From assembly GCA_026004595.1 (NCBI GenBank), contig BPJL01000001.1, forward strand, positions 90,486-154,485: a stretch of 64,000 nt of DNA, given 5' to 3'. The notes beneath the pieces are model-generated. The model was not told where the DNA came from and made no database searches. It was given only the letters and a program-made list of their open reading frames with translations. Positions 3,201 through 44,753 of this stretch are shown here, in pieces. Made by a program: the position numbers and the translations under genes. This stretch comes from Patescibacteria group bacterium (lineage in GTDB: Bacteria; Patescibacteriota; WWE3; UBA101185; UBA10185). The first letter of the stretch is position 1. Each line of letters begins with the position of its first letter.

Positions 3201-3215
3201 CAGTTTATTTATGTT

Positions 3216-11451: not shown

Positions 11452-11527
11452 GGGTGATTAGCTCAATTGGCAGAGCTCTCGTCTTATACACGAGCGGTTC
11501 CTGGTTCGATCCCAGGATCACCCACCA
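11452..11527 (+). tRNA. tRNA-Ile (anticodon TAT, reads AUA)
   Basis: 76-nt cloverleaf GGGTGAT TA GCTC AATTGGCA GAGC T CTCGT CTTATAC ACGAG CGGTT CCTGG TTCGATC CCAGG ATCACCC A CCA. The anticodon loop gives UAU. Confidence 0.8.
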
Positions 11528-24423: not shown

Positions 24424-25722
24424 ATGAATTTTGTTGCGTCAACAAAACATTTGCTTTCTAAACCTTTTCTCTTGATATATTCGTTCGTGGTTTTTGCCAT
24501 TCCATTAATATTTTCACAGAACACAGGGGAGTTTTATGAGTTTCCCAAGATTACTTTCTTTTACACTTTGGGTGCGTTTATTTTTGCTTTGTATATTTCA
24601 GACACAATAATCTGGCCTAGAAAAAATATCCGCCTACCCCTAGTGGTAGTTTTGTTTGCAGTTTCTTTTGCTGTTTCAACACTAGTTTCATCTCACCCTT
24701 ACACATCGGTATTTGGCTATTATTCAAGGTTTGCAGACTCACTATTATTTTATTTGGCTGTTCTATGTTTTTACTACATTGCTATGAACGTTTTGTCCAA
24801 GAAAGATATAGGATTGCTGTTTAATGTTGCACACTTTGGTTCGGTGATTCTTTTTCTCTTTGCCTTGGGGCAGTATTTTTCTTTATTCACATTTTTATGG
24901 GGAGGCCAGTTGCAGGAAAGAGTGTTTTCAACCTTAGGACAGCCTAATTGGTACGCCCAGTATCTTACTATGCTATTGGGAATTTCAATGTTTGAGTTTC
25001 TTTTCAAGGGAAGAAAAGTATATCTCCTCTTCTGTTTTGTGCAGTTCTTTTCCTTGTGGCTAACATTCTCTATGTCGGGGTTGGCAGGATTTATTTTAAC
25101 TATCTTTTCTTACTTTTATTTGTTCCTTTTCGGAAAGGAGAAAATCGAGGGCAGAAAAAATTTTTTATTTAGAGTGGCGGCAGTTTTAGCACTAGTTTTC
25201 GTTGTATCGCTTTTGTTTCCCGGAATTTTTAGGGCAAAACTTAGAGACATGATTACTGATTTCAGAAAAGTTGTCGGGGGAAATTTTTTGGTGTATGCCC
25301 AAAATGTAACTGAAACAAATCAAATATCAGATCCCGGTTATATAAGATCAGGTTTATGGAGAGGAACAGTGGATATGATAATTTCGAATCCCAAAATATT
25401 TATCCTCGGGTCTGGTCCGGAAACCTTTCCGTACTATTTTCAAAAGTTCAGACCGTTAAGTTTGAATTATTCGTCTGAGTGGAATTTCGTTTTTAACAAG
25501 CCTCACAATTATTATCTAGAGATTTGGGCGGAGCAGGGGATCTTGGGTATTATCTCTTATCTGCTTTTTCTTATTTTCGTGTTAAAAAAAGTTGACGCCA
25601 AGTATCGGGGTGCCGTAATTGCTTTTGCAGTTACCAATTTTTTTGGGTGGCCGACGGTAACCACATTCGTTATTTTTTGGTTGATTGTTTCGACGATAGG
25701 AGCGAAAAATGAAACTTTTTAA
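24424..25722 (+). CDS. O-antigen ligase/polymerase family membrane protein (Wzy_C domain)
   Basis: About 12 TM helices. Wzy_C-type periplasmic loop motif NKPHNYYLEIWAEQGILG. Confidence 0.6.
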   Translation: MNFVASTKHLLSKPFLLIYSFVVFAIPLIFSQNTGEFYEFPKITFFYTLGAFIFALYISDTIIWPRKNIRLPLVVVLFAVSFAVSTLVSSHPYTSVFGYYSRFADSLLFYLAVLCFYYIAMNVLSKKDIGLLFNVAHFGSVILFLFALGQYFSLFTFLWGGQLQERVFSTLGQPNWYAQYLTMLLGISMFEFLFKGRKVYLLFCFVQFFSLWLTFSMSGLAGFILTIFSYFYLFLFGKEKIEGRKNFLFRVAAVLALVFVVSLLFPGIFRAKLRDMITDFRKVVGGNFLVYAQNVTETNQISDPGYIRSGLWRGTVDMIISNPKIFILGSGPETFPYYFQKFRPLSLNYSSEWNFVFNKPHNYYLEIWAEQGILGIISYLLFLIFVLKKVDAKYRGAVIAFAVTNFFGWPTVTTFVIFWLIVSTIGAKNETF

Positions 25723-26308
25723 AATTATATTGCTGACAGGAGTGTGGGCATTTACTTTAATTGTAATTATGTATGTTGACAGAATTTACACAGCCGATAA
25801 GTCTGCTGTTCAGGCCGTCGATTTACTTGAAAGTATGGAATACGAAAAGGCCTTGGTAAAAGCTGATGAGGCCTTGGAACTTAATCCACAAGAACCATCT
25901 TATTACAGAACCCGGGCTTTGATCTACCTCGCCAAGTATGTATTGGAAGATGATACACAGGATTCGCTCGGGTATAAGGAAAAAGCTTATGAGGATGTAG
26001 TCAAGTCTATGGAGCTAAATCCTGACAACCTTGTGACTAAGAGAAACCTTGCCCCCCTTTTTTACTTTCTTGCAATTCAAAATGTTAATTCTATGGCGGG
26101 GAAGGACAACCACGACCCCAAATTTATTGATGTAGCAACTGCCTATTTTGAAGATTTGAAGAATGAGTATTCTCACGATGCTGGGGTAGTTACACTTGTT
26201 GCTGGATACGAAAGGAAGCTCGGTTTGCAGGAGAGGTACGAAGAGAGCAGAGGGATGATTAGGAGTTTGAGGCCAGATTTATTGGAGTGGCACCAATCAT
26301 TCAACTAG
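25709..26308 (+). CDS. Membrane-anchored TPR-like repeat protein
   Basis: N-terminal TM helix then helical-repeat sequence (ALVKADEALELNPQEPSYYRTRALIYL...). Confidence 0.35.
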   Translation: MKLFKIILLTGVWAFTLIVIMYVDRIYTADKSAVQAVDLLESMEYEKALVKADEALELNPQEPSYYRTRALIYLAKYVLEDDTQDSLGYKEKAYEDVVKSMELNPDNLVTKRNLAPLFYFLAIQNVNSMAGKDNHDPKFIDVATAYFEDLKNEYSHDAGVVTLVAGYERKLGLQERYEESRGMIRSLRPDLLEWHQSFN

Positions 26309-27490
26309 CTCAATATACTCAGCTGAAACCCACCCCTCGGCTGATTCCGAAACTTTAATTTTTACCCAGTTCGTTTGTTGTTCAAGAACCGGGTAGGTTC
26401 CGCCCTGATCCACACGTGTGATTTCAGTTCCGTTTAGACTCGGCTCGTTTCTCACTCGCAGCCAGCCGGTAGGCGTGGCCTTTATCTTGGCTTGTTTTCC
26501 GATTACCGCCTCGCCCAAAAGTGTTTCCAAGGTTGTTCTCGCTTCTTTAGTAAGGCCTACGCCGTCGGCCGTCCTGCCAAGGTATCCAATTTTGCTGTTG
26601 GGTTTGACTAATGCCAGCTCTTCCTTAGAGGTGATCGGTTTTCCCTCTGCATTGAAAAGATCGCCTTTGTACGAAAGGAAAAGATCGAAGAAAGGCTCTT
26701 TGTTTTCGCCCGTGCCCTCTATGTTAAGACCCTTGTTCTTGTTGACGTAAACTACCGCTTTTGCCCATTCTTCAGGATTTGCCGTTACGACATTGTTGCC
26801 GGAGGAAAGATCGTATATGTTTTTGGAACCCTCAAACGTTGATATTTTTTGAGGAACGGGCGATGGAAAAAGTTTGAAAGTGGCATTTAAGGTATATCCC
26901 TTTTGTATTGAAATTCGGGTTGAGAGTATTTCAAATCCTGGTATGGATACTTTTAGTTCGTAGTCACCATCGCTTATATTGTTTGCAAGGTATGGAGTCA
27001 CTGCTTCAACATCCGAATTGTCTATGAATACTTTTGCTCCAGAAGGCTCGCTGATTACTCTTAATACATTTCCAGAGGTATCTTTTTCAAACCAAAGTTC
27101 CCAACCAGAACTAAAGGTGTCCGATACACCAAGGTCGCGGGATATTGCTACATAGTGGATTTTTCCTCCCTCGTTTGGCAAAAAATTTATGGAGGTTTGG
27201 TATTGCCTGGATGCGTTTCTAATGGAGATTTTGTTGTTGCCCGGGGTAATATTATCTGCTGTGTAGGGGGTTTTTCCGACAAATTTGTCGTTTATATAGA
27301 CGTCTGCTTGTTCTCCGATGCTGGTTATGTTTATGCCTGACTTTGCCTTAAGCTTATCGATGTTTCTTACGATATACCCGCCAAAAAATACTATAAGACC
27401 TACGCCTACAATACCTAAAAAGTAGAGAAGAGCATTAGGCAGTGATTTTTCCTTGCTGGCAATGGTAGATATCGGCATGGAATGATACAT
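26297..27490 (-). CDS. PEGA-domain surface protein with C-terminal bacterial SH3 domain
   Basis: N-terminal TM anchor. Repeated PEGA-like segments (VYINDKFVGKTPYT; KVFIDNSDVEAVTPY). C-terminal SH3b-like (WLRVRNEPSLNGTEITRVDQGGTYPVL...WVKI). Confidence 0.5.
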   Translation of the reverse strand: MYHSMPISTIASKEKSLPNALLYFLGIVGVGLIVFFGGYIVRNIDKLKAKSGINITSIGEQADVYINDKFVGKTPYTADNITPGNNKISIRNASRQYQTSINFLPNEGGKIHYVAISRDLGVSDTFSSGWELWFEKDTSGNVLRVISEPSGAKVFIDNSDVEAVTPYLANNISDGDYELKVSIPGFEILSTRISIQKGYTLNATFKLFPSPVPQKISTFEGSKNIYDLSSGNNVVTANPEEWAKAVVYVNKNKGLNIEGTGENKEPFFDLFLSYKGDLFNAEGKPITSKEELALVKPNSKIGYLGRTADGVGLTKEARTTLETLLGEAVIGKQAKIKATPTGWLRVRNEPSLNGTEITRVDQGGTYPVLEQQTNWVKIKVSESAEGWVSAEYIELVE

Positions 27491-32248: not shown

Positions 32249-33118
32249 TCAAGATATTTTTAGTTTTTTGAGAATGTTTTTGTAGGATTCGAGGATTCTT
32301 CGAGAATTATCGTTTTTGTTGAAATGTATTATGTGCTTACCCAACACTTCGGTTGTGATTTTCTTTCTCATATAATGCAGCTGAGCTTCTCTTGCCATAT
32401 TTTCGAGCAGAGAAAATAAAAGGCCGGACGACGACTCGCTCCTTCCCTCAGTGTAATTGATGCGAAAATTTGGGTAGTAGTCCATAACCCAATTGTTCTG
32501 GCTTATAAACTTAAAATATGTATCGCCTTTGTTAACTATTGGTTGGATCATTACTATGTCCGAGGCAATGAAAATATTTCTTTTTTCCTTTTCCCATTGC
32601 ATTTTAGATTCATCTAGGAAAAGATTAGTGCAAAAGCTGCCTGGCTGGCCGTCGAATTGTGGGTGTTTATTTAATATTTTCAAAATTAGGGCGACAAACC
32701 CTCGGGTTATCCATAAGCGGTTCCTTTTGGTTATGAGCATCAAGTCAATGTCAGAATTTTTTTCTGGATTGTAGGCGGCTAATGAACCCGTTATCGCAAT
32801 CATTCTAACCCAAGGAATGCCGCCCAGAAATTTTAAGAGCGGGGTGTTTTCTTCTATTATCTTTTTGGAGAGTTTCTGTTTCGACAGCCAATTAGTGTAT
32901 TTTTCACCCAGTATTTCATACTTTCCATATATTTTTCTTGCCCACCTGTCTTTTATTAGTTTATTGAGAGCAGTTTTTAGTTTTTTACTGTTTGATGGAG
33001 AATCAGCTATCAAGTAAGTGCCTATTTGAAAGAAGCTCATGGGGTAATGAAACAAGGCTCTGTAAGCAAGGGTTCGTTTTATTGCGGATTCTACTCCTTT
33101 TCCGGTTCTTTTCGGCAT
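32249..33118 (-). CDS. Pol-beta-superfamily nucleotidyltransferase-fold protein of unknown specificity
   Basis: Motif GSLAAYNPEKNSDIDLMLI (GS...DxD) is typical of minimal nucleotidyltransferases such as KNTase/GlnE-type. About 170 aa of unknown C-terminal domain. Confidence 0.4.
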   Translation of the reverse strand: MPKRTGKGVESAIKRTLAYRALFHYPMSFFQIGTYLIADSPSNSKKLKTALNKLIKDRWARKIYGKYEILGEKYTNWLSKQKLSKKIIEENTPLLKFLGGIPWVRMIAITGSLAAYNPEKNSDIDLMLITKRNRLWITRGFVALILKILNKHPQFDGQPGSFCTNLFLDESKMQWEKEKRNIFIASDIVMIQPIVNKGDTYFKFISQNNWVMDYYPNFRINYTEGRSESSSGLLFSLLENMAREAQLHYMRKKITTEVLGKHIIHFNKNDNSRRILESYKNILKKLKIS

Positions 33119-33122
33119 TCTA

Positions 33123-33536
33123 TTACCCTTGCTTGTACATGTACTTATCTAATGCTTTGTTTACCAGAAGATCGGCATCGGTATTTTTCTCTCTCGGCAC
33201 ATGCTTAAATTCTATATGTTCAAATTTTTCAGCAAGTTCGGCCACTTTTTGAAAGAGGGGTTTTAGGCCGGCATTTTTTACCTTATATTCTCTGTTAAGC
33301 TGTTTCACTATCAATTCGCTGTCAAGATAACATATCAAATTGGCAATTTTTCTTTCTATTGCCGCTTTCAAGCCTTCTAGAACAGCTGTGTACTCTGCTT
33401 GATTATTTGTTGTTTCACCAATGTACACGCCCATCTCATATATTTTTTCCTTTCTCTCGTTTCTAATTACAATTCCTATTCCTGCAGGTCCGGGGTTTCC
33501 TCTGGCGCCCCCGTCTGTGTTTAATTGGTAAGTCAT
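33123..33536 (-). CDS. rnhA: Ribonuclease HI
   Basis: RNase H type 1 catalytic residues in context (TDGGARGNPGPAGIG...NNQAEYTAVLEGL...YLDSELIV...TDADLLVN). Confidence 0.8.
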   Translation of the reverse strand: MTYQLNTDGGARGNPGPAGIGIVIRNERKEKIYEMGVYIGETTNNQAEYTAVLEGLKAAIERKIANLICYLDSELIVKQLNREYKVKNAGLKPLFQKVAELAEKFEHIEFKHVPREKNTDADLLVNKALDKYMYKQG

Positions 33537-34138
33537 TTGATGTATTCCTTAAAAGAAAATTTTAATAATGAGAAAGCTAATCCTATTAACAACCCGCTGA
33601 ATAAGTAATTTGGGAGGGGTCTTTGGTCTCTTTTGACGACGGGTTCTTCAGAAATCGGCAGCACCTTGATGTTTTCGTCAGAGGCATTTGTTATTTTCTC
33701 CCCAGCTTCCAAGAAACGCTTGGAAAGAGAATCATAGATTTTGAGAGTTTTCTCGTTGTTGTAATCCGCTACAGCTAGTGAAACCACCTGCGGGCCTTTT
33801 TTATACACTTTGTAGGTTCTTGAGAGCTTTCTTAGGTTGTTGTCCGTAACGGCAAGTTTTAAGTCACCCAACACTGCGCTTTTTATGTTTTCACTTTCAA
33901 GCAAGGCAATTGCCGTATTTGTGTAGGATTGGGCGGTTTGCTGGGCGTAATACCCCTCATAAGTAAAAAACTCGTTGCTTGGTTTATCAGCAACTCTTCC
34001 TATAAAGTAATACCCCTCGGCTACGTATTTTCCCGGTATAAAAGTGGCTATAATGCCCAAAATGCCTCCGGAAACCGTCAAGATCAGTAGTTCTTTTTTT
34101 CGTGTGTTTAGTTTTTTTAAGATTTCCCTTAATTCCAT
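33533..34138 (-). CDS. Wzz/chain-length-determinant-like (PCP) bitopic membrane protein (tentative)
   Basis: 201 aa with N- and C-terminal TM helices around a soluble central domain, as in short polysaccharide co-polymerases. Confidence 0.3.
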   Translation of the reverse strand: MELREILKKLNTRKKELLILTVSGGILGIIATFIPGKYVAEGYYFIGRVADKPSNEFFTYEGYYAQQTAQSYTNTAIALLESENIKSAVLGDLKLAVTDNNLRKLSRTYKVYKKGPQVVSLAVADYNNEKTLKIYDSLSKRFLEAGEKITNASDENIKVLPISEEPVVKRDQRPLPNYLFSGLLIGLAFSLLKFSFKEYIK

Positions 34139-34241: not shown

Positions 34242-37200
34242 ATGGTCAAAAATCAGTCCATTAAAAAAAATTCGCTAGTTCCGACAATTTTGGTCAGCGG
34301 AGGCGCGGGATTTGTCGGTTCTCATCTTGTTGAGGCACTGCTTTCCAACGGTGCGAGAGTTCTGGTATTGGATAATTTTAACACTGGAAAAGAAATTCAC
34401 GTAAAGCATCTTCTCGCTAATCCGAACTTTGCTCTCTTTAATGTGGATATAAATGAAGGACTTCCGCCTGAGATAGAGAGTGTTGATTATGTTTTTCACA
34501 TGGCCGGGTTAGAAGATTATATGTACAGCGGCGAAGATCCAACTCTTGACACTTTGCTGACAAACTCGCTCGGTACTAAGAATCTTCTCGATCTAGTTAA
34601 ACGCTCGGAGGCGAAGTTTGTTCTTATATCTACAATAGATGTGTATCAGGGGAGAATGTCGCAGGACGAGCTGGGAAAATATTTTGGTCTCTCAAAGCCT
34701 GAAGAAAACAAGTTCAGCTTGATTGAAGCGAAAAGGTTTGCCGAGGCAGTAGTTTGGGAATACTACAAAAAATATGATTTGGATGTTCGGATTGTTCGTC
34801 TTCCAGAAGTATACGGACCAAGAATGAATCTTGACTCAAGTGGGGCACTAGGAATTTTTATAAAAGCATTGCTTGATGGAAGGAATATTGAGGTTAGCAA
34901 TGACGGTGTTGAAAAAGAGTACTATCTTTATGTATCGGATGCGGTGAGCGGAATTTTAAGATCAATGTTCAACCAAGGGACAAAGGGAGGTATTTATTCT
35001 CTGGTACCTGATTCTCCGATAACCCAACTGGAGATTGCCTATCTTCTAAAGAGCTTGGCTGATGGAAACATTGCTATTACCTTCAAGAGCTCGGGGTTCT
35101 CTCTTCCTTTCAGAGGTCCCGCACCTGATACATATAATCTTAAGGATTTGGGTTGGAAGCCACGTATTGGTTTGAAGGCCGGGATAATAGACACTCTTAA
35201 GTCTTTTGGCTACACGGTAAATAGGAATACATTCAAGCCCGCGAGATATGTTGAAGAAAAACTTGTGGCAAAAGGTGTGCAGACAACAACGGTTAAACCG
35301 TCTGAAAATACACCTCCTGCAACTGCGCCGGTAACCTCCATTTATCCTGCGGACATGGCCACTCTTTACGCAAGGAATTATGTAAATAAGGAGAGGAAAC
35401 CACGAAAGAAAATAGATTTGGGATTTCTTTTCAGGCATAAAGGTGTAAAAGAGAGCAAGGAAAAAAGGGCAAAGACTGTCTTCTCCAATTCTAAGTTTTA
35501 TATTGCAACCGCAATTTTTATTTCCGCCATTCTTGTGTTTCTCATAAACCCACTTTTTAATTTATATTCCAATGTTAGTTCAGGTGTTACCGCTTTAAAT
35601 AACATAGAAAAGGCAGGGTATAGTTTAAATTTGGAAGAGCTTTCCAAAAACTCGGCGCTTGCCTCTCGTAAATTTGAAACAGCAACCAAAAATCTCTCAG
35701 ATTTAAAATGGCTTTTTTCGCTTTCAGGTAAATCTCCGGAGTACATAAGCTATTTTAGAATGTTAAACTCTCTAAAGAATTTTTCCGAATCGGTTGGCTA
35801 CTTAGCAAAATCGGCAGCTCCCCTTGAGGGAATGTGGGAAATACTTAGACCGGATACTCAGGATGTTCTTACCAAAGATATAATTGACAACGCAAAATTT
35901 GAAATAGGACAGGCTCAAAAACTTCTTTACCTAGCTGAGGCAGATTTTGGCGGGGTTGATAAAGTGCACATTCCCGAAAAATACAGAAAACATGCTGACA
36001 ACTATGAAAAATATATTTTAATTCTTCAACAAAATTTGAGTCTTACAACAAAAATCATAAGTGATGTAGCCAATGTTTTAGGTGTTGAGAAGGAAACGAC
36101 CTATATAATATGGTTTCAAAACTCAAACGAACTGCGTCCGACCGGAGGCTTTATCGGTTCTTATGGCTTGTTAACCTTTGATAAAGGAAAAATAAAAGAT
36201 CTAAAGATAGATGATATTTATAATCCTGACGGACAGATAAAATTAAGAGATATAAAAGTAGATGCCCCCGAAGTCATTTCCAGATATTTGCAGGAGGATA
36301 GATTGTTTTTAAGAAATTCCAATTGGGATCCAGATTTTCCAACAGCGGCGGGAGTCTTTGGCAATCTTTTTTACAGGATAGACGGCCAGGGTGTAGATGG
36401 TTACATAGCCGTGGACCTAAAGTTTGTTGAAGGGATACTACGTGCTACAGGACCGGTGTATCTTGCGGCATACAACGAGGAAATAAATACTGATAATCTT
36501 TACGAGAGAACGCAGTTCCACAGCGATTTTAATTACACCGAAGGATCCAACCAGAAAAAGTCATTTTTGACAGTTTTAGGTAGCAAACTTTTGGATAAGG
36601 TATTTTCTCTTCCAAAAGATAAAATACCAGATCTTCTTAACGAAATACAAAAGTCTTTGGACGAAAAGCACCTTCTTGTTTATCTTTCAAACGGAGCAAT
36701 AAACGAAGTTTTGAAGGAGAAAAATTGGAATGGACAGGTGGTTCCTGTTGAGGGGGATTATTTATATGTTGTTAACTCCAATCTTGGAGGAACAAAAGCT
36801 AATTATTTTGTTAAGAATTATATTGATTACGAAATAAGTTCCATGACAAGAGACGGGGTGTTGAGAGCTGTGCTTAAGCTGACCTATACCCATACCGGAG
36901 ATTCCATGGCTTGGCCTGGGGGGCCCTACAAAGATCATATAAGGGTGTTAGTCCAAAAAGGCGCCAAACTCACTGGAGCGGAATACATAGGGACCGATGG
37001 TTTATCAGAGAATGTGATGGAGAAAATATCTTTATCGCAATCAAATGGCTACGACGTGATGTCCTATGATTTGGTCCTGAACCCAAAGGAGACAGCCACT
37101 CTCATTATAAAGTACGATCTTGCCGAGAAGCTGAATATAACCAAGGATCGCGCTTCCTATTCATTATATGTTCAGAAACAGCCGGGGACAGACGCAGATC

Positions 37201-37337
37201 CTTTCAACTTTACCTTTAACGCTCCATTTGGCATGCAAATAACTAAGGCGAGCAAAGGACTGGACATATTGGATAATAAAATAGTGTCTTTATCCGAACT
37301 TAGAAATGATAAGAATTACTTTATAGAGTTGCGCTGA
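34242..37337 (+). CDS. Fusion protein: NAD-dependent sugar epimerase/dehydratase (SDR) + TM segment + DUF4012 domain
   Basis: N-terminal Rossmann motif VSGGAGFVGSHLVEAL and extended-SDR features (~330 aa). Then a TM helix (IATAIFISAILVFLINPLF). A ~650-aa C-terminal domain carries the DUF4012-type motif ELRPTGGFIGSYGLLTF. Confidence 0.6.
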   Translation: MVKNQSIKKNSLVPTILVSGGAGFVGSHLVEALLSNGARVLVLDNFNTGKEIHVKHLLANPNFALFNVDINEGLPPEIESVDYVFHMAGLEDYMYSGEDPTLDTLLTNSLGTKNLLDLVKRSEAKFVLISTIDVYQGRMSQDELGKYFGLSKPEENKFSLIEAKRFAEAVVWEYYKKYDLDVRIVRLPEVYGPRMNLDSSGALGIFIKALLDGRNIEVSNDGVEKEYYLYVSDAVSGILRSMFNQGTKGGIYSLVPDSPITQLEIAYLLKSLADGNIAITFKSSGFSLPFRGPAPDTYNLKDLGWKPRIGLKAGIIDTLKSFGYTVNRNTFKPARYVEEKLVAKGVQTTTVKPSENTPPATAPVTSIYPADMATLYARNYVNKERKPRKKIDLGFLFRHKGVKESKEKRAKTVFSNSKFYIATAIFISAILVFLINPLFNLYSNVSSGVTALNNIEKAGYSLNLEELSKNSALASRKFETATKNLSDLKWLFSLSGKSPEYISYFRMLNSLKNFSESVGYLAKSAAPLEGMWEILRPDTQDVLTKDIIDNAKFEIGQAQKLLYLAEADFGGVDKVHIPEKYRKHADNYEKYILILQQNLSLTTKIISDVANVLGVEKETTYIIWFQNSNELRPTGGFIGSYGLLTFDKGKIKDLKIDDIYNPDGQIKLRDIKVDAPEVISRYLQEDRLFLRNSNWDPDFPTAAGVFGNLFYRIDGQGVDGYIAVDLKFVEGILRATGPVYLAAYNEEINTDNLYERTQFHSDFNYTEGSNQKKSFLTVLGSKLLDKVFSLPKDKIPDLLNEIQKSLDEKHLLVYLSNGAINEVLKEKNWNGQVVPVEGDYLYVVNSNLGGTKANYFVKNYIDYEISSMTRDGVLRAVLKLTYTHTGDSMAWPGGPYKDHIRVLVQKGAKLTGAEYIGTDGLSENVMEKISLSQSNGYDVMSYDLVLNPKETATLIIKYDLAEKLNITKDRASYSLYVQKQPGTDADPFNFTFNAPFGMQITKASKGLDILDNKIVSLSELRNDKNYFIELR

Positions 37338-37351: not shown

Positions 37352-39049
37352 ATGCCTTTAGCAGACATGCCCCAATCTCATAAACAGCACGCTGTCCCAC
37401 AGAATGTTATGAGTGTGGAATTTAAGCTTATCGGTGATCTCACAATGAGACAATTCGCGTACGTTTTCATTGCCGGGGTTCTTGCCTACCTTTCGTATGT
37501 ATTTTTTGTGGGTATTTTCAGATGGCCTTTGGTTTTTCTTATTGCATTTGGCGGAATCGGTTTTGCTTTTATTCCTGTACAGGAAAGGGGAATGGACGAG
37601 TGGATTATTAATTTTTTTAGGGCGATGTATTCTCCGACCCAGCGTATTTGGAGAAAGCAGCCTACGATACCAACCGCCTTTAGTTATGATAATCTCGCTG
37701 TTGTAAGACAAGAGCTTATAACACTTGCGCCTACCTCCAGTCGTAGAAAGCTTGAGGAATATCTTAAATATCAGGCCGGTGGTGAGGAAGTAGACCCGTT
37801 GGATATACCAGAAAGGGAGTATGCTCAAAAAGTTAGGGATGCTTTCCCTGGTGCCAGGAAGAAAAGCGAGGCAACTTCTACCGCGTTTTCAAGAAGTTCT
37901 TTCGGTCCCGCAATCGGTGTGCAGCCTACAGCCGTAACAACAATAGAAGGAGAAGCCATTCAGGAAGAAGAAGTTGTTACGCCGGTTTCTGTTGAAGTTA
38001 GTGCAGGTGAAGAGGTCGGTGTTGCAGCCAAGATTCCACAAGCCGAGGAACCAACTGTTCAAAAAGCGGAAGTTTCGGTTCAAACAGGTATTCAAAGAAG
38101 TAAGGACGCCGGTCTTTTTCATTTATTCAAGGCGAAAGAAGCTCAGAAGGCTAGGGAAGAGGCGCGAGCCGCCAAATTGGAAGATGGTGCCCCCCGTCTT
38201 TCTGCCCCATCTTCTAAGGCGTCGTCTATACCTCTTAAGCCGCTAACACCCGATATGCACTCTGGGCGAAGGTTTGTAAATCTACTGCCTTCAGAAGGCG
38301 AACTTATCCTTCCTATTAGAGGAGAGAGGGTGCTTAGAACTTCAGAAGAAATTTCTGTTGAAGAGACAATAAATGAAAAGGCAAGAAAGCTGCAGGAGTT
38401 GCTTAGGAGGATAAAGGAGGAAGAGGGGATTAAATCTGCCAAAGTTGTTGTAGCCCCAGTTTCGGTTGCCCAAAAGGAAGAACAGCGAGCTCAGGAGGTT
38501 CACGATGAGGCCAAAGATGTTGTTGATAAGCTTAAGATTCAGAGCGAAGAAATTAACGAAGAGATTAGAAGGCTTAAGAGAAATATTGAGTCAACCCACA
38601 CGCTCGGTTCCGCGTCCGAAACTCAAACAAGACTGTTGCAGGAGCTTGAGACCAAGAAACAGGCTGTTGAGGAAAGCTACCGTGTGCTTAGCCAAGGGAT
38701 CCAGAGTTTGAAATCAGAACCGAGAGAGAAAGTGGGAGCTGCTTCGGATATGATAAGAGACACATACCCAACAGAAAAAATTAGTCCTAATACTCTCCAT
38801 GGCGTGGTTAAAGACGCCAATGGAAAAGTACTGACTAATGTATTGTTAATAGTAAAGAATGAAGAAGATGAGCCGGTGAGAGCGCTAAAGACCGACAGCT
38901 TAGGAAGATTTGAGCTTCTGTCCGCACTGAACAATGGGAAATATACCATTGAAGTTAAGCCTTCAGATGAGCAAAAATTGTCGTTTGAAAAAATTTCTGT
39001 AGAATTAAAAGGTGATGTGGTTCCTCCTTTTGTAATATTGGGCAAATAG
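37352..39049 (+). CDS. PrgI-family (VirB3-like) T4SS membrane protein with long coiled-coil/low-complexity extension and C-terminal CarboxypepD_reg-like beta-sandwich domain
   Basis: N-terminus EFKLIGDLTMRQFAYVFIAGVLAYLSYVFFVG plus a second TM matches the PrgI family. Residues ~150-480 are Ala/Glu/Lys-rich with heptad-like stretches. The C-terminus GVVKDANGKVLTNVLLIVKNEEDEPVRALKTDSLGRFELLSALNNGKYTIEV is an Ig-like regulatory fold. Confidence 0.55.
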   Translation: MPLADMPQSHKQHAVPQNVMSVEFKLIGDLTMRQFAYVFIAGVLAYLSYVFFVGIFRWPLVFLIAFGGIGFAFIPVQERGMDEWIINFFRAMYSPTQRIWRKQPTIPTAFSYDNLAVVRQELITLAPTSSRRKLEEYLKYQAGGEEVDPLDIPEREYAQKVRDAFPGARKKSEATSTAFSRSSFGPAIGVQPTAVTTIEGEAIQEEEVVTPVSVEVSAGEEVGVAAKIPQAEEPTVQKAEVSVQTGIQRSKDAGLFHLFKAKEAQKAREEARAAKLEDGAPRLSAPSSKASSIPLKPLTPDMHSGRRFVNLLPSEGELILPIRGERVLRTSEEISVEETINEKARKLQELLRRIKEEEGIKSAKVVVAPVSVAQKEEQRAQEVHDEAKDVVDKLKIQSEEINEEIRRLKRNIESTHTLGSASETQTRLLQELETKKQAVEESYRVLSQGIQSLKSEPREKVGAASDMIRDTYPTEKISPNTLHGVVKDANGKVLTNVLLIVKNEEDEPVRALKTDSLGRFELLSALNNGKYTIEVKPSDEQKLSFEKISVELKGDVVPPFVILGK

Positions 39050-39050: not shown

Positions 39051-39752
39051 ATGACAAACCAAAACATACCGGCAACTCAAGATCATCTCGATATTATGGA
39101 TATAAGAGATAACTTTGTTATTCTCAAGAATGGAGGTGTATGTGCGGTTCTACAGACTACGGCGGTCAATTTTGACCTTCTTTCGGAGATGGAGCAGGAT
39201 GCAATCATTGCGGCATTTTCTATGTTATTGAATTCAATAACATTTCCTATACAAGTTGTTATCAGATCAAGAAGGTTGGATATTTCTAAATATTTGGAAA
39301 AAGTATATAGAGTAGAAAGCAAACTGGCTGATCCTTTATTGAAACATCAGGCCTCCGCGTATAGAAAATTTGTTCAGGATGTGATAAAGAAGAACGATGT
39401 TCTGGACAAGAGATTTTATGTTGTTATTCCTACAAGTGTTGCTGAAAAAGCGCAACCGGGTTCAGGGCCGTTCGACTGGCTTATGAGACTGACGGGACAG
39501 CACAACAAGAGGGTTTCGTTTAATATTGAAAAGGCTCTCAACGACGGAAAGATAGAATTATCACCTAAAATTGATCACGTAATAAAAGAATTCAATAGAC
39601 TGGGAATCAAGACAAAGCAACTTACTACACAAGACTTAGTGGAGCTTTATTTTGATATTTATAATCCGACCTCTATCCATGGTCAAAGGATTAGGACGGG
39701 GGTTGATGATTATACGACGGCGATAGTAAACCCCGCAATCATTGAGGAGTAA
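39051..39752 (+). CDS. T4SS VirB4-family protein, N-terminal domain encoded as a separate polypeptide (Tn916 Orf16-like N-region)
   Basis: DIMDIRDNFVILKNGGVCAVLQTTAVNFDLLSEMEQDAIIAAFSMLLNS matches the first conserved block of Orf16/TcpF-type VirB4. In Orf16 this block precedes the block found at the start of the next ORF. The gene ends at TAA one nt before the next ATG, which has its own SD (GAGGAG). Confidence 0.5.
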   Translation: MTNQNIPATQDHLDIMDIRDNFVILKNGGVCAVLQTTAVNFDLLSEMEQDAIIAAFSMLLNSITFPIQVVIRSRRLDISKYLEKVYRVESKLADPLLKHQASAYRKFVQDVIKKNDVLDKRFYVVIPTSVAEKAQPGSGPFDWLMRLTGQHNKRVSFNIEKALNDGKIELSPKIDHVIKEFNRLGIKTKQLTTQDLVELYFDIYNPTSIHGQRIRTGVDDYTTAIVNPAIIEE

Positions 39753-39753
39753 T

Positions 39754-41862
39754 ATGGCGTTAAATCTTTTTACAATGTTTTCAAATCAACCGAAACCTAA
39801 GAAGCAGGATAAGCAACCGAAGCCCGGAGAAAAGACACCGGCGGAGGTGCTGGCGGAAGGAATGCTGAATGTCAGGGACATTATCGCACCCTCCGCTATA
39901 GAAATTGACTTTAACCATATAAGAATCGGAAATGTGTATTTCAGGACGCTGTTCGTTTCAGGATATCCAAGATTTGTCGGCGCAAACTGGTTGTCTCCGA
40001 TTATCAATTTTGAACATACACTGGATGTTTCTATGTTTTATTATCCTGTGAAATCTAAGGTAATTCTTGATGATTTAAGGAGAAAAATCACCGAGCTTGA
40101 AGCGACAACCATGACCAATATTGAGAAGGGAAAGATTGTTGATCCTGTTGTAGCCGCGGCGTTGGAAGATGCCAAAGCTCTTCAAGAACAACTGGTTAAG
40201 GGAGTTGAAAAATATTTTCAATTCTCTTTTTACATAACCATATCCGCCGAAACTGAGGAAGAGCTTGAGTCCATTTCTTCCAAGCTGGAAAGTACGCTTG
40301 GCGCCCTGCTTCTTATATCCAAGGTAGCTTCCCTTCAGATGGAAGAGGCTTTTCAGTCCTCAATACCTACGGGTATGGATAAACTGTTGGTTACGAGAAA
40401 TATGGACACGACAAGTTTGGCCACAACATTTCCGTTTACCTCGTCTGATCTGACTATGGAGGAGGGAATAATGTATGGGATCAACAGGCACAATGGTTCA
40501 TTGGTCATATTCGATAGGTTCTCTCTAGAAAATGCAAACTCGGTTGTTTTCGCAAAATCAGGCTCAGGAAAATCATATTTTGTTAAGCTTGAGGCACTCA
40601 GGCTTTTGGTATTTGGCGCAGAGGTGATGATTATAGATCCGGAGGAGGAATACAAAACTTTGTGCGAGGCTGTAGGGGGTAATTATATCGATTTTTCTGC
40701 CAACTCACCGCATAAGATAAATCCTTTTGATCTTTCGGGCGTTGCAGTGGAGGGAGAAAACGAGCTAGGACAGAAGCTCATTGGCCTTATAACACTGTTG
40801 AAGCTTATGCTTGGTGGGTTGACAGCAGCCGAAGAAGCCATTCTCGATCGCGCCCTCATTGAAACGTACAGAATTAAAGGGATTACCACCGACCCTGATA
40901 CCCAATCCGGCATAGAGCCTCCTGTCATGGAGGATTTATACAAGGTGTTGTTGGGGGCTTCTGAACCTGAAGCAAAGGGAATGGCCGAAAGACTTGAGAG
41001 ATTTATCAAGGGCTCTATGACGGGAATCTTTGATTCCCAATCCAATATTAACTTGGACAGCAAGATGACGGTTTTCTCGACGAAACACTTAGAGGAGGCT
41101 CTAAGGCCTATCGCCTTTTATTTAATACTTGATTTTGTTTGGACTAGAATAAGAAAGGATTTGAGAAAGAGGATATTAATTGTTGAAGAGGCTTGGTATT
41201 TGATGCAAAACGAAGATAGTGCAAGATTTATTTACGGAATTGCGAAACGAGCTAGAAAATATTATCTAGGTCTTACAACGATATCGCAGGATGTTGACGA
41301 TTTCTTGTCGTCTGAATACGGAAAGGCGATTGTTACGAACTCATCAATACAAATATTGTTGAAACAACACCCGGCGGGCATAGATAAAGTTGCCGAAACC
41401 TTCTATCTCTCCGAAGGAGAAAAGAGGCTGTTGTTGGCGGCTGCTGTAGGAGAAGGGCTGTTTTTTGCAGGTTCGAATCATGTGGCGATAAAGATAATGG
41501 CGTCAGAGGCTGAACATAAGCTTATAACCACGAACCCCGAAGAGTTGCTTAGGTTGCGTGAGCAGGGATTGATAAAAACGCCGGGGAAAGACAAACCCAA
41601 ACCACCTGAAATTCCATCTACACAAAAACCATCTCCTTTGGTAGAAACCCCGTCTGTTTATAGTACACCCACAATTACGGATACAACCGCATCACTGAAA
41701 GAGCCGGAGAAAAAAGAGGACGAGAAGGGCTTTTCCGAAGTTCAATCGAAAGAACCCACAAGTGAAGATATACTCAGATCTGTCGAGTCAATGTCAAAAG
41801 GGCCGGGAACCATAGATCTTAACCAAGAAAGTTCACTCCAGCAACCCGCTCCCGCAGAATAA
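39754..41862 (+). CDS. T4SS ATPase VirB4/TraC/TrbE family (CagE_TrbE_VirB)
   Basis: N-region IAPSAIEIDFNHIRIGNVYFRTLFVSGYPRFVGANWLSPII. Walker A FAKSGSGKS. Walker B ILIVEEAW. C-terminal Pro/Thr-rich tail. The ATG at 39754 is preferred over the TTG at 39742. Confidence 0.8.
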   Translation: MALNLFTMFSNQPKPKKQDKQPKPGEKTPAEVLAEGMLNVRDIIAPSAIEIDFNHIRIGNVYFRTLFVSGYPRFVGANWLSPIINFEHTLDVSMFYYPVKSKVILDDLRRKITELEATTMTNIEKGKIVDPVVAAALEDAKALQEQLVKGVEKYFQFSFYITISAETEEELESISSKLESTLGALLLISKVASLQMEEAFQSSIPTGMDKLLVTRNMDTTSLATTFPFTSSDLTMEEGIMYGINRHNGSLVIFDRFSLENANSVVFAKSGSGKSYFVKLEALRLLVFGAEVMIIDPEEEYKTLCEAVGGNYIDFSANSPHKINPFDLSGVAVEGENELGQKLIGLITLLKLMLGGLTAAEEAILDRALIETYRIKGITTDPDTQSGIEPPVMEDLYKVLLGASEPEAKGMAERLERFIKGSMTGIFDSQSNINLDSKMTVFSTKHLEEALRPIAFYLILDFVWTRIRKDLRKRILIVEEAWYLMQNEDSARFIYGIAKRARKYYLGLTTISQDVDDFLSSEYGKAIVTNSSIQILLKQHPAGIDKVAETFYLSEGEKRLLLAAAVGEGLFFAGSNHVAIKIMASEAEHKLITTNPEELLRLREQGLIKTPGKDKPKPPEIPSTQKPSPLVETPSVYSTPTITDTTASLKEPEKKEDEKGFSEVQSKEPTSEDILRSVESMSKGPGTIDLNQESSLQQPAPAE

Positions 41863-41865: not shown

Positions 41866-42978
41866 TTACAGTTGTATTGGCATGATAATATGCAGAAAGT
41901 CTTCTTCGTTTTCGGTTTTGAATATGCAGGCAGAGTTATTTGAGTTTGCCTCAATTATTATTTTCTCGCCCCGTACGTTGTTTAGAAAATCCAAAAGGTA
42001 TTTTGAGCTAAAAGCTATTTCCAACATATCTCCGTCTACTTCTGCGGAAATTTCGCTTTCATGAGTTCCCACCTCGTTGTTTAGAGAAGAAATTTTTATA
42101 ACACCTTCAGGATCAATTCGTATTTTGAGTGTGTTGCTGGAGCCCTCTTTTACGAATACTGTAGTCAGTCTTACCGCGTCTAGAAAATCGGAAGATGAGA
42201 AAGAGGCTTTTACGGCAGCTGTTGTCGGTATTATTTTTTTATAATCGGGATACTGCCCATCGATTATTCTGGTGGCGATGGTGGTGTCTTCAGCCGAGAA
42301 AAGGGCGAGGTTCTCATCTTCGCTTAAAGTCATTTTTACCGGGCTCTCGGAAGAAGCGAAAATTTTGCTCACCTCCGCAAGAGTTTTTGATGGGATCAGG
42401 GCAGTGAATTTTTTGGCTTTTGAAGACCCCGTCTTAATGGTTCTCTCAGATAGCCTGAAGCCATCAGTTGAGGCGAGTGTCATTTTACCGTTGTCGTAGG
42501 CGATATAGACACCTGTAAATATGGGTCTGCTTTCGTCTAGTGACGATGCGAAGCATACCAAAGATACTGCGGTGGCGAATATTTTTGGGTCGAGTTCGAG
42601 TGAGGTTCCCTTTACAGGCATAGTTGGAAGTTCGGGGAAATCCTTGGCGTCCGTACCGTTTATCTTTGACTTTGTTTTTTCGGATTTGATATTGAGAATA
42701 TCGTTGTCTAAATTCACTTCGATGGTTGAGGGTGGAAGGTTTGCAACTAATTCTTTCAATATCTTGGCCGGGATGGTTATGGTTCCTTCCTTTTCTACGG
42801 AGGCGTTTACGTATGTAGTAATGGCAGTTTCCAGATTGGTAGCCGCCAGTTTTATCCTCCCATTTTCGGTTGATAAAAGCACATTTGAGAGTATAGGGAG
42901 AGATCCTTTGGCTGGTACAGCTCTGGTAGTAATTTGTAGCCCCCTATTTAAGTTTTCCTGTAGGCAAGAAAATTTCAT
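41866..42978 (-). CDS. dnaN: DNA polymerase III beta sliding clamp
   Basis: Three-domain beta-clamp pattern. N-terminus MKFSCLQENLNRGLQITTRAV...LPILSNVLL. Confidence 0.9.
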   Translation of the reverse strand: MKFSCLQENLNRGLQITTRAVPAKGSLPILSNVLLSTENGRIKLAATNLETAITTYVNASVEKEGTITIPAKILKELVANLPPSTIEVNLDNDILNIKSEKTKSKINGTDAKDFPELPTMPVKGTSLELDPKIFATAVSLVCFASSLDESRPIFTGVYIAYDNGKMTLASTDGFRLSERTIKTGSSKAKKFTALIPSKTLAEVSKIFASSESPVKMTLSEDENLALFSAEDTTIATRIIDGQYPDYKKIIPTTAAVKASFSSSDFLDAVRLTTVFVKEGSSNTLKIRIDPEGVIKISSLNNEVGTHESEISAEVDGDMLEIAFSSKYLLDFLNNVRGEKIIIEANSNNSACIFKTENEEDFLHIIMPIQL

Positions 42979-43430
42979 TGTCTTTTGAGTTTTAAAGTAA
43001 CCCGCCTATCCCGTCCTTCTCCAATACTTTCTGAGATTATATCGTCATATTCTGAAACGAACATATGTATTTGTCTTCTTTCCCAAGGATCCATCGGAGG
43101 CAGTTCAACATCTTTTTGAAAAAAACGAACTCTATCTATGTAGCTCCTGGCCATGTTTTGAATCTTTTCAGTTCTTTGGTCTCTGTAGCCGTTTATGTCG
43201 ATGATTACTGTGACTTGTTCTCCAGTCTGTCTTAAAACCGTCAAATGCAAAATGCTTTGAAGCGCGTCAAGTGATTGTCCTCTGTGCCCTATCAAAAAAT
43301 TTAGGTTGTTGCCTTTTATAACAACTTCGTAAACCTTATCTCCCTTGTCGTTGATTTCGTAAACCGGCTCTATTTTCATAAAGCCGAAGATGTTTTCTAA
43401 TGTGTTTTGAATTATATCCTGAGGTTTCAT
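42975..43430 (-). CDS. jag: Jag/KhpB RNA-binding protein (KH + R3H domains)
   Basis: KH-like segment and R3H motif (IGHRGQSLDALQSIL). Located downstream of yidC as in the conserved rnpA-yidC-jag cluster. Confidence 0.75.
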   Translation of the reverse strand: MKPQDIIQNTLENIFGFMKIEPVYEINDKGDKVYEVVIKGNNLNFLIGHRGQSLDALQSILHLTVLRQTGEQVTVIIDINGYRDQRTEKIQNMARSYIDRVRFFQKDVELPPMDPWERRQIHMFVSEYDDIISESIGEGRDRRVTLKLKRQ

Positions 43431-43456
43431 TTTTGCTGCTCTCTTTCGTAGAAATT

Positions 43457-44242
43457 CTATCTTTTCGTTTTCGCAAAACCCAGTTTTTTAACCCAGGGTT
43501 CTAGCCCTCCCCACCCTGTGAAAAAGTACGTTTGCACTATTTGGAACAAGGTTGAAACAGCTATGTATATCATAACACCTGAAGGCAAGGTTAGGCCGAA
43601 AAAGAAAAACATAAGCGGCATGATATACAGATTTTGTTTTTGCATAGACTGTATAATGTCGTCAGTTTTCCCAGGTGTTTTCTTGACTGCTTTTTCACTT
43701 ATCTTGGAGTAGGGCATCATCATTTTTGTAGCCAAAAATTGCAATATTACCGATAGGATCACGATTATTAAATATGGGTCAGGTTTGGCCAGATCTAGGT
43801 ATAAAAATCGGGTATTAATGGTTTCTTGTGAATCAATGCGAAAGTTTTGGAAATATATGCGGTTGTTAAGGTCATCTATTCCGGAACCGTTAGTCATTAT
43901 AATTACCGATTTGTAAACCGCGATCATAAACACAATAGTGATTATTGTTGTAAGGCATCCCGAAGCGGGGTTTATTCCGTGCTTTCTCATAAGTTCCATT
44001 TGCATTTGTGCCATTTTCTTTTGATCATGTTTGTATTTTTCTTTTATTTTCTCTATTTCGGGTTGTACGTCACGCTGTTTTTTGCTCATTTTTATAGAAG
44101 GCAGGGTAACAGGTATCATGACCGCTTTTACTATGATTGTGAATAGAATTATGGCCAGGCCAAGGTTGCCTATAAATGCGTATATGATAACCAAAACGTT
44201 AAATATTGGATTAAGTATTGCCGCATCCCAAATTGCCGTCAT
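43457..44242 (-). CDS. yidC: Membrane protein insertase YidC (short Gram-positive/Oxa1-like form)
   Basis: Five-TM core with conserved YidC segments (QPEIEKIKEKYK...MQMELMRKHGINP). Confidence 0.85.
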   Translation of the reverse strand: MTAIWDAAILNPIFNVLVIIYAFIGNLGLAIILFTIIVKAVMIPVTLPSIKMSKKQRDVQPEIEKIKEKYKHDQKKMAQMQMELMRKHGINPASGCLTTIITIVFMIAVYKSVIIMTNGSGIDDLNNRIYFQNFRIDSQETINTRFLYLDLAKPDPYLIIVILSVILQFLATKMMMPYSKISEKAVKKTPGKTDDIIQSMQKQNLYIMPLMFFFFGLTLPSGVMIYIAVSTLFQIVQTYFFTGWGGLEPWVKKLGFAKTKR

Positions 44243-44248
44243 AAGTAT

Positions 44249-44464
44249 TTATTTTACAGGATCGTAACCTCCTTTTGAAAACGGATTACATCTTACCAGT
44301 CTTTTGATTCCCATGATAGTGCCTTTTACCGCGCCATATTTTTCTACAGCCTCATATGTATAATCTGAACAGCTGGGGGTAAAACGGCAAGTATTTATTC
44401 CGAAGTTACCTGGGCTGAGAAACCTTTTGTAGATTTTTATTAAAATCAGTATAAATCTCCTCAT
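44249..44464 (-). CDS. yidD: Membrane protein insertion efficiency factor YidD
   Basis: Signature [36 protein letters not shown]...RCNPF. Confidence 0.8.
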
Positions 44465-44753
44465 AAGTTTTATCCGATACTGAAAATTTTGGATAAACAG
44501 AAATCCAGCAGTTTTGGGGAATGAAGTTTAGGTTTTTCCTAATAGCTTCCCTAAACAGGCGTTTTACTTTGTTTCTTGCAGTAGCCTTTTTACTAAACTT
44601 GTTTGAAACCACCACACCCGCTTTTGTCGGCCCCATGTAGTTATCTGGTTTCAATACATAAGCAAAGAAAGTATCCCCCTCTATTTTCTGTCCATATTTT
44701 TTGGTTATCTTGTACTCAAAAGGTGTGGAAATACGGTTCTCTTTTTTCAGCAT
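44406..44753 (-). CDS. rnpA: RNase P protein component
   Basis: RnpA RNR-like motif region ([18 protein letters not shown]). Lies between rpmH and yidD. Confidence 0.8.

Follow-up and report, generated by a model that had tools for sequence, protein, structure and literature searches.

LytR-CpsA-Psr (LCP) proteins are organised into a transmembrane helix, an accessory domain, a catalytic core and a C-terminal domain; in Cps2A, R267, R362 and R374 are placed on the pyrophosphate with D371 and Q378 supporting, and D234 and D246 on Mg2+ (PMC7831098). Human UDP-xylose synthase (hUXS1) has the Thr118, Tyr147, Lys151 catalytic centre of the short-chain dehydrogenase/reductase (SDR) family, and its Y147F mutant forms no UDP-xylose and R277Q only traces (PMC3438964). 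DUF4012, which comprises more than 10,000 sequence clusters with no assigned function, is among the few families reported to be enriched in candidate phyla radiation (CPR) and Gram-positive bacteria (Meheust et al. 2019, PMC6744442). The only experimentally studied locus with a DUF4012 gene is the exopolysaccharide (EPS) locus of Bifidobacterium longum 105-A, where BL105A_0406 lies in the Wzy-type eps1 operon between the gene of a priming glycosyltransferase and wzz; the conserved core of this locus contains the DUF4012 gene, and no LCP gene is listed in the locus. Here we describe a gene in which DUF4012 is joined to an SDR domain (SDR-DUF4012), found in a 64,000-nt stretch of the genome of a Patescibacteria group bacterium of the WWE3 lineage (assembly GCA_026004595.1, contig BPJL01000001.1, positions 90,486 to 154,485), which we call the window and to which all positions refer. 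We favour, tentatively and with slightly less than even confidence in the whole chain, a model in which its product is an LCP-like envelope glycopolymer module with one transmembrane anchor and a degenerate, probably nucleotide-binding cytoplasmic domain derived from a UDP-xylose synthase (UXS)-type enzyme. Our confidence in the pseudoenzyme assignment and in the LCP-like fold, each taken alone, is higher.

The gene is one uninterrupted open reading frame (ORF) with an ATG start that encodes 1031 amino acids. Pfam places Epimerase (PF01370) at aa 16-252 (E 1.6e-32; 113.3 bits, gathering cut-off 20.9) and DUF4012 (PF13196) at aa 618-755 (E 7.6e-27; 95 bits, cut-off 28), and Polysacc_synt_2 (PF02719) matches weakly (E 1.4e-6). 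The sole strongly hydrophobic segment (Kyte-Doolittle window >2.0) spans aa 419-441. Eight Lys/Arg residues are found in the 25 positions preceding it and one in the 25 following, a charge bias that fits an N-in/C-out bitopic protein with a cytoplasmic Rossmann domain.

34242..37337, forward strand: whole gene, encoding a bitopic membrane protein with a predicted pseudo-SDR, a transmembrane helix, a helical stalk, a predicted LCP-like DUF4012 core and a beta-sandwich (ORF, Pfam, full-length homologs at 40-100% identity)
35232..35495, forward strand: cytoplasmic linker, aa 331-418, Lys/Arg-rich and poorly conserved (mean top-residue frequency 0.28, gaps 38%)
35496..35564, forward strand: single transmembrane helix, aa 419-441, N-in/C-out (Kyte-Doolittle, positive-inside charge bias)

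A sequence-only reading of this gene had proposed a single ORF with the order SDR, one transmembrane helix, DUF4012, a cytoplasmic N-terminus and an exported C-terminal part. The ORF, the Pfam matches, the hydrophobicity profile and the charge bias bear this out, including the family assigned to the C-terminal region and its hallmark motif RPTGGFIGSYG (aa 632-642). An alignment to hUXS1 spans aa 15-322 of the SDR, given there as ~330 aa; for the DUF4012 part, given as ~650 aa, the conserved region beyond the transmembrane helix is nearer 590 aa (aa 445-1031). No frameshift or stop was found in the linker, where a break into two genes had been considered. PF01370 and PF13196 occur together in one protein of ~1000-1200 aa, encoded by one ORF, in each of the 120 listed homologs, which show 40-100% identity and stem from independent assemblies; the closest come from candidate division WWE3 or 'Patescibacteria group' assemblies. 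We therefore reject an assembly artefact, a chance ORF or a frameshifted gene pair, as the single-ORF architecture recurs in more than 100 independent assemblies.

The best PDB match of the SDR domain is hUXS1 (E 1.5e-45). Its alignment with the domain defines the following elements.

34284..35231, forward strand: UXS-like extended-SDR domain, aa 15-330, cytoplasmic and predicted to be catalytically inactive (PF01370, UXS1 alignment)
34299..34319, forward strand: GGAGFVG, aa 20-26, the Rossmann NAD-binding glycine motif, kept (Gly conservation in homologs)
34716..34736, forward strand: SLIEAKR, aa 159-165, a degenerate YxxxK motif aligned to hUXS1 CYDEGKR, with Tyr replaced by Leu160 and Lys164 kept
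34911..34925, forward strand: EKEYY, aa 224-228, with Glu226 at the UXS Arg277 position (hUXS1 alignment)

The dinucleotide-binding features are retained: the four glycine-motif positions are kept in 118-119 of the 120 homologs, and the NAD-site Asp, the acidic residue that ends beta-2 (VLDNF, aa 42-46), in all of them. The Ser/Thr-Tyr-Lys triad is incomplete. Lys164 (hUXS1 Lys151) is invariant and Thr131 (Thr118) is Thr or Ser throughout, with the Tyr147 column occupied by Leu in 109 homologs, Val in 4, Gln in 2, Met in 2, and Ser and Ala in one each, and by Tyr in none. The UXS-specific set Ser119/Glu120/Arg277 is likewise not preserved: hUXS1 STSE aligns with STID, so that Ser119 becomes Ile132 and Glu120 becomes Asp133 (Asp in 119/120), and Arg277 is replaced by Glu226 (Glu in 106/120). 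The Asn of the hUXS1 FN.FGP motif is Glu in 119/120, and all NCBIfam equivalog models score far under their cut-offs for this domain. A standalone SDR elsewhere in the window (55418-56380), which served as an internal control, retains YGVTK.

Within the clade, conservation of the SDR domain matches that of the DUF4012 core (mean top-residue frequency 0.73 vs 0.72; columns at >=90% conservation, 36% vs 35%), which argues that it is functional and under selection, but not for canonical SDR chemistry. Together, the loss of the catalytic Tyr and of the UXS-specific residues and the retention of the NAD-binding Rossmann motifs suggest that the fused domain is most likely a pseudoenzyme. The 'complete epimerase/dehydratase' of the sequence-only reading is thus not upheld, and the sugar activation that it coupled to extracytoplasmic polymer handling is unlikely, given the behaviour of the hUXS1 mutants; the polymer-handling part of that proposal is strengthened by the predicted LCP-like core described below.

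Several homologs (P0020, P0025, P0092, P0118 and others) bear the automatic names 'UDP-glucuronate decarboxylase' or 'nucleoside-diphosphate-sugar epimerase'. Since the catalytic Tyr is missing across the family, such names probably over-annotate the proteins, and the SDR half serves as a warning against automatic annotation.

We then considered how the SDR half fares outside the closest clade. A search with only the ectodomain (aa 445-1031) finds 10,492 representative clusters at E <= 1e-3, of which 3,424 reach E <= 1e-30; the best 150 of the 10,492 are mostly 800-1100 aa long, with the match beginning at about residue 350-640. Among 147 new representatives of the closest DUF4012 clusters, an SDR-like N-terminus was detected with the query's domain in 114. 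The catalytic column holds Tyr in only 7 of these more distant 114, ~45% of which have a degenerate glycine motif; for ten long proteins without an SDR match, Pfam shows DUF4012 only. A metagenome set of 80 loci retrieved with a core alignment (core identity 34-63%) contained 68 complete genes, in which the SDR state was scored with domain-trimmed hidden Markov models (HMMs). The domain is full-length in 29, a partial remnant in 24 and undetectable in 15, and the 29 full-length SDRs include three with Tyr and two with YxxxK. Nearly all 68 genes keep a cytoplasmic N-terminal region of ~170-480 aa ahead of the membrane segment, and one or two adjacent hydrophobic segments are located ~180-200 aa before the core.

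The SDR-DUF4012 fusion, which the sequence-only reading took to be unusual, is the normal form in this lineage and the standard DUF4012 architecture in WWE3 and many other Patescibacteria; it is unusual only against the shorter DUF4012 proteins found elsewhere. The simplest history suggested by the series is that an active UXS-type enzyme became fused to DUF4012, lost catalysis early and was kept as a non-catalytic cytoplasmic domain. The SDR half would then be a clear natural case of an enzyme domain that turned into a pseudoenzyme and subsequently decayed.

The same data bear on the alternative that the SDR is an active epimerase, dehydratase or decarboxylase that channels its product to the extracytoplasmic DUF4012. 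The domain is full length and clade-conserved with its NAD motifs, Thr131 and Lys164 in place, and YxxxK is found in 6/114 distant representatives and 2/29 metagenome loci; its presence in a few distant lineages suggests that the ancestor was probably an active enzyme. For the present protein, however, we consider this alternative very improbable. The catalytic Tyr is absent from the query and from every listed homolog, four of the six residues that make up the hUXS1 active site differ, and single substitutions at two of them (Y147F, R277Q) abolish or nearly abolish hUXS1 activity. Glu at both the FN.FGP Asn and the Arg277 positions would put negative charge at the expected nucleotide-sugar site. 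Finally, many lineages retain the protein although its SDR domain has decayed to a remnant or can no longer be detected.

The extracytoplasmic half was examined with AlphaFold2 (AF2), Foldseek and conservation analysis.

35574..36077, forward strand: helical bundle or stalk, aa 445-612, extracytoplasmic, at the position of the LCP 'accessory domain' (AF2 helices, model residues 2-168, pLDDT mostly 80-95)
36078..36761, forward strand: DUF4012 alpha/beta core, aa 613-840, predicted LCP-like fold (PF13196, AF2 and Foldseek)
36120-36167, forward strand: invariant core motif NSNELRPTGGFIGSYG (this and the next five from conservation columns)
36207-36236, forward strand: invariant core motif IDDIYNPDGQ
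36309-36338, forward strand: invariant core motif LRNSNWDPDF
36393-36419, forward strand: invariant core motif VDGYIAVDL
36495-36509, forward strand: invariant core motif NLYER
36543-36560, forward strand: invariant core motif GSNQKK
36762..37334, forward strand: C-terminal beta-sandwich, aa 841-1031, with conserved NLGGTKANY, TRDG.LR, WPGGPY and QKQPGT (AF2 all-beta from model residue 395)

For aa 445-1031, AF2 gives a confident model (pLDDT 86.6, pTM 0.84) in which model residues 2-168 form a helical bundle, 175-395 an alpha/beta core and 395-587 a beta-sandwich; the stalk is moderately conserved (0.48). The core modelled alone (aa 610-845) reaches a pLDDT of 90.6. With this core, the 26 best PDB matches in Foldseek are all LCP proteins (E 3e-7 to 3e-3, probability 0.99-1.00, TM-score 0.43-0.56), among them Cps2A, TagT/U/V, S. 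aureus LcpA, LytR, BrpA, MsrR, the A. oris LCP and several structural-genomics LCPs. The first non-LCP matches, to the nucleotide-binding domains of Hsp70 and PPX, have TM-scores of 0.11-0.16 and low probability. The LCP signal appears only with the core alone; the whole 587-aa ectodomain model gives weak partial matches (TM-score 0.16-0.22), which we take to reflect the beta-domain of M1 aminopeptidases.

The invariant polar residues of the core are located at strand ends and in loops (Asn627, Glu630, Arg632, Asp658, Tyr660, Asp663, Arg691, Asn694, Asn752 and Lys772), and Arg756 is nearly invariant. Judged by motif and secondary-structure order, Arg756 may correspond to Cps2A R362 and Lys772 to R374, with Asp658 in place of R267. 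In our view the core probably acts in the manner of an LCP enzyme and binds a lipid-linked substrate that contains phosphate at the edge of the sheet.

A second membrane protein is encoded next to SDR-DUF4012 on the opposite strand.

33533..34138, reverse strand: Wzz/CpsC-like (polysaccharide co-polymerase (PCP)-like) membrane protein, 201 aa, divergent from SDR-DUF4012 (sub-cut-off HMM matches, hydrophobic ends)

It matches TIGR01006 (CpsC family) over model positions 9-196 of 226 (E 8e-9; 35 bits against a cut-off of 296) and Pfam Wzz under its cut-off (E 0.0085), as does, weakly, the L012 ortholog; its hydrophobic segments lie at ~aa 17-35 and 174-192. The Wzz-like gene is adjacent to the DUF4012 gene in 9/9 genome loci at >=42% identity and in 15 of the 49 informative metagenome loci, and its product is likely a partner of the SDR-DUF4012 protein.

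Genes for lipid-linked glycan synthesis are located 9-23 kb upstream of SDR-DUF4012, between 11484 and 25722, where family scans identify:

11484-12794, reverse strand: GT87 glycosyltransferase
18223-19767: GT2 glycosyltransferase
19779-21284: GT4-family polyprenyl-phosphate sugar-phosphate transferase with a long N-terminal extension
22590-23534: UbiA-family prenyltransferase
24424-25722: Wzy_C / O-antigen-ligase-like protein

Within the model that we favour, the architecture, the family-wide loss of catalytic residues, the decay of the SDR, the prediction of an LCP-like fold and the neighbouring genes are observed, and we infer a lipid-linked glycan substrate, any transferase activity, a partnership with the Wzz-like protein and a role for the pseudo-SDR. 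The ectodomain would bind a polyprenyl-(pyro)phosphate-linked glycan, supplied by the Wzy-type pathway of the same genome (the GT4 sugar-phosphate transferase, GT2 enzymes and the Wzy_C protein), and would perform or assist the last extracytoplasmic step, in which the polymer is handed to the cell wall. The Wzz/CpsC-like protein would act as its partner, mirroring CpsA and CpsC, and the pseudo-SDR would most likely be an anchor that binds a nucleotide (NAD or UDP-sugar), dimerises or regulates, and that does not modify sugars.

Several observations weigh against this model. The Pfam LCP model PF03816 gives no match to the SDR-DUF4012 protein at E < 0.01, and we do not class DUF4012 as a member of PF03816. 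We retrieved 125 genuine database LCP sequences with an approximate consensus bait (PDB alignments and 120 PF03816 proteins) and compared their profile with that of DUF4012. hhalign aligned 38 columns (vDGvIAiDL..v..lL..tGp vs IDyYV.iDf.gF..iVDalGG) with a score of 29.2 and P 0.0018; the score exceeds the maximum of 25.1 among 80 shuffled templates, yet an unrelated SDR profile reaches 28.9. With only four LCP sequences P was 0.033, and a forced global alignment of DUF4012 with LCP failed. Searches of PDB sequences with the ectodomain (phmmer) and with a 14-sequence profile returned nothing significant and no LCP chain, the best match being the expansin-like EXLX1 (E 0.75). DUF4012-LCP homology at the level of sequence is thus unproven, and a TM-score of ~0.5 with a root-mean-square deviation of 7-8 Å, obtained from a predicted structure, corresponds to a distant fold resemblance. 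The Cps2A catalytic set (R267, R362, R374, D371, Q378, D234, D246) is not recognisably conserved in DUF4012, and the LCP motifs RSD, PRD and R.R..GD..R..RQ are absent from its core; regular expressions for canonical LCP motifs found none in the window and 13 retrieved loci, a result that does not bear on the remainder of the genome. Most distant loci (34 of the 49 informative ones) lack the Wzz-like neighbour. We know of no experiment on any DUF4012 protein, and none of the literature passages mentioning DUF4012 that we retrieved relates the family to LCP or notes a dead SDR.

An alternative is a model in which the ectodomain has an LCP-like fold but is itself non-catalytic, acting as a scaffold, a lipid-carrier-binding regulator or a co-polymerase-like partner of the Wzz-like protein, with the pseudo-SDR serving for dimerisation only. 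In its favour, the LCP Arg/Asp set is unrecognisable and the Pfam LCP model silent, half of the polypeptide has already become a pseudoenzyme, and extended SDRs such as UXS are dimers. However, the invariant E630, R632, D658, Y660, D663, R691, N694, N752 and K772 sit in loops at strand ends, a distribution usual for active or ligand-binding sites and unlike that of a pure scaffold. We regard a non-catalytic ectodomain as unlikely, though by no means far-fetched.

Downstream, SDR-DUF4012 is followed by genes related to type IV secretion systems (T4SS).

37352..39049, forward strand: PrgI (VirB3-like) with a C-terminal CarboxypepD_reg Ig-like domain, 565 aa (Pfam PrgI 6e-10, CarboxypepD_reg 8e-8)
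39051-39752, forward strand: TrsD/TraC-like ORF, 233 aa (NCBIfam TrsD 1.2e-8)
39742-41862, forward strand: VirB4 ATPase (CD1110-family VirB4 1.6e-114, above cut-off)
41866-44753, reverse strand: dnaN, khpB/jag (KH and R3H), yidC and rnpA, directly after virB4

A location immediately upstream of a VirB3/VirB4 module had been noted from the sequence and is confirmed: prgI starts 14 nt downstream of SDR-DUF4012, trsD follows after 1 nt, and trsD and virB4 overlap by 11 nt. With such small gaps, co-transcription of the four genes is likely, and SDR-DUF4012 and prgI are probably in the same operon; a promoter/terminator scan found fewer promoter-like sites than in shuffled controls and gave no usable signal. 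PrgI is joined to its CarboxypepD_reg domain through a long Glu/Lys/Ala-rich linker, and the TrsD/TraC-like N-terminal part of VirB4 is encoded here as a separate ORF. The nearby genes that were annotated include neither a relaxase nor a coupling protein.

A survey of Patescibacteria T4SS describes VirB4, TrsD, PrgI, VirB6 and VirB2-like genes near the origin, with no relaxase and without several canonical parts; its main text mentions neither DUF4012 nor an epimerase (PMC12102498). The presence of dnaN, khpB, yidC and rnpA next to virB4 places the present block beside the chromosomal origin region, in agreement with that survey. In WWE3 the order is groES-groEL, (hsp20), a nucleotidyltransferase gene (NTase), RNase H, the Wzz-like gene and then, divergently, SDR-DUF4012, followed by prgI, trsD, virB4 and, on the opposite strand, dnaN, khpB, yidC, rnpA and rpmH; it is conserved to 40-45% protein identity. 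A mobile-element origin of the VirB4 module was rejected, as the block lies in conserved synteny between groEL and dnaN/khpB/yidC/rnpA.

This arrangement raises the possibility that the SDR-DUF4012 protein is a lineage-specific structural or wall-remodelling part of the chromosomal Patescibacteria T4SS-like machine, standing in for a missing cell-wall-spanning or VirB1/VirB8-like component. The tight spacing, the order kept in WWE3 loci and in 10 metagenome loci, and an origin-proximal T4SS that lacks several canonical parts are all consistent with it. The adjacency is nevertheless confined to the closest relatives. VirB4 lies downstream in 8 of the 49 informative metagenome loci (downstream counts require >=3 kb of downstream sequence), all eight with a core identity of at least 53%, and VirB4-type adjacency in 7/9 genome loci at >=42% identity comes entirely from the WWE3 sub-clade. 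A link with PrgI/VirB4, for which the sequence-only reading suggested a co-occurrence analysis, thus does not extend to the family as a whole, nor does DUF4012 show the steady co-location with virB4, prgI and trsD that would mark a member of the monoderm-type (MPF-FATA-like) Patescibacteria T4SS gene cluster. In loci L033 and L056 the modules are split, with the T4SS genes staying beside dnaN and the DUF4012 gene on the other side; in L006, L009 and L010 the gene that follows resembles that of ribosomal protein L25, going by its N-terminal sequence only. DUF4012 is, moreover, very widespread and occurs in the Bifidobacterium EPS locus, and two modules that are both origin-proximal can become adjacent by rearrangement. 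We consider a T4SS part quite unlikely. DUF4012-VirB4 adjacency is a clade-specific arrangement of two origin-proximal modules, within which a functional link in WWE3 is possible.

A bolder version of the LCP-like model, which we regard as a long shot, would make DUF4012 an unrecognised, highly divergent branch of LCP-fold phosphotransferases that attach lipid-linked surface glycopolymers as the terminal step in Patescibacteria and in Actinobacteria such as Bifidobacterium. The captured UXS would now be a transmembrane-coupled NAD/UDP-sugar sensor or dimeriser that gates wall decoration by precursor supply, and in WWE3 the module would have been wired into a T4SS operon. In its plainer form, the predicted LCP-like fold provides a testable hypothesis for the family, the handling of polyprenyl-pyrophosphate-linked glycans at the cell wall, and an LCP-like role would bear on how ultrasmall episymbionts decorate the envelope with which they contact their hosts.

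Among the genes around SDR-DUF4012, an RNase HI gene (33123-33536, reverse strand, 137 aa) has RVT_3 and RNase_H Pfam matches and, by eye, intact DEDD residues. An RNase HI gene lies <=1.6 kb upstream of the DUF4012 gene in 47/49 informative metagenome loci (within L014-L093), in 36 of them on the same strand, mostly at a distance of 13-145 nt; loci of the WWE3 clade have it divergent from SDR-DUF4012, with the Wzz-like gene between. This link is much tighter than that with VirB4 and is without obvious functional reason. The Wzz-like gene, RNase H (4-nt overlap) and a gene for a 289-aa protein (4-nt gap) form a packed unit on the reverse strand (32249-34138) that is conserved across WWE3 loci; the 289-aa protein has weak nucleotidyltransferase matches (Polbeta / NTP_transf_2).

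Elsewhere in the window, the standalone extended SDR (320 aa) with intact YGVTK overlaps a GT2 ORF by 46 nt (55418-57333, forward strand) and is likely an active nucleotide-sugar enzyme. A membrane-anchored protein with PEGA, DUF2846 and SH3_3 domains (26297-27490, reverse strand) is probably a surface- or wall-associated protein; PEGA and SH3_3 also occur together in a protein encoded near the homologous locus of P0101. A large serine recombinase with Resolvase, Recombinase and Zn-ribbon domains (3216-4850, forward strand) is preceded by small same-strand ORFs, of which the one scanned (212-1444, forward strand) has no Pfam match; this start of the window (212-4850) may be an integrated mobile element or prophage remnant.

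Compared with BL105A_0406, the SDR-DUF4012 protein belongs to the same Pfam family and has a Wzz-like neighbour parallel to wzz. The B. longum gene, however, measures 1730 bp (~575 aa), too short for a full 330-aa SDR and linker, and its uncharacterised product carries no annotation beyond 'auxiliary envelope protein'. WbpM, PglF and CapD (Polysacc_synt_2) likewise represent membrane-tethered extended SDRs in surface-glycan pathways, but have N-terminal transmembrane helices, an intact catalytic centre and no extracytoplasmic domain.

With UXS / UDP-glucuronate decarboxylase (human UXS1, PDB 4GLL, 2B69) the SDR domain shares GGAGFVGSH, DNF, the catalytic Thr and Lys and the two-domain layout. 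It differs in clade-conserved replacements (Leu for Tyr147, Ile for Ser119, Asp for Glu120, Glu for Arg277 and Glu for the FN.FGP Asn) and in being tethered to the membrane through a C-terminal linker and transmembrane helix. NmrA and HSCARG/NMRAL1 are atypical, non-catalytic SDR-fold proteins that act as dinucleotide-binding sensors. Like the domain described here, they keep the Rossmann NAD(P) fold and have lost the catalytic Tyr, and so offer a precedent for a regulatory role; unlike it, they regulate transcription or signalling as soluble proteins and did not arise from a UXS-type extended SDR, and ligand binding is putative in the present case.

The LCP proteins S. pneumoniae Cps2A, B. 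subtilis TagT/U/V and S. aureus LcpA resemble the DUF4012 core in predicted fold. The order of parts is also the same, with an N-terminal membrane anchor followed by an accessory domain, then the alpha/beta core outside the membrane and one further domain at the C-terminus, and so is a neighbourhood with a putative Wzz/CpsC-type protein and Wzy-type glycan genes. The SDR-DUF4012 protein departs from them in having no PF03816 match and a profile-profile similarity close to that of an unrelated SDR profile, and in its motifs (ELRPTGGF, DD.Y.PDG and R.SNW.PDF vs G.D.R, RSD, PRD and R.R..GD..R..RQ). It also has a helical stalk instead of the Cps2A-type accessory domain, ends in a large beta-sandwich and carries an SDR-derived domain of 400 aa in the cytoplasm. 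Streptococcal capsule loci start with cpsA, which encodes an LCP protein, and cpsC, which encodes a PCP, and by analogy the pair of DUF4012 and Wzz-like proteins would parallel CpsA and CpsC.

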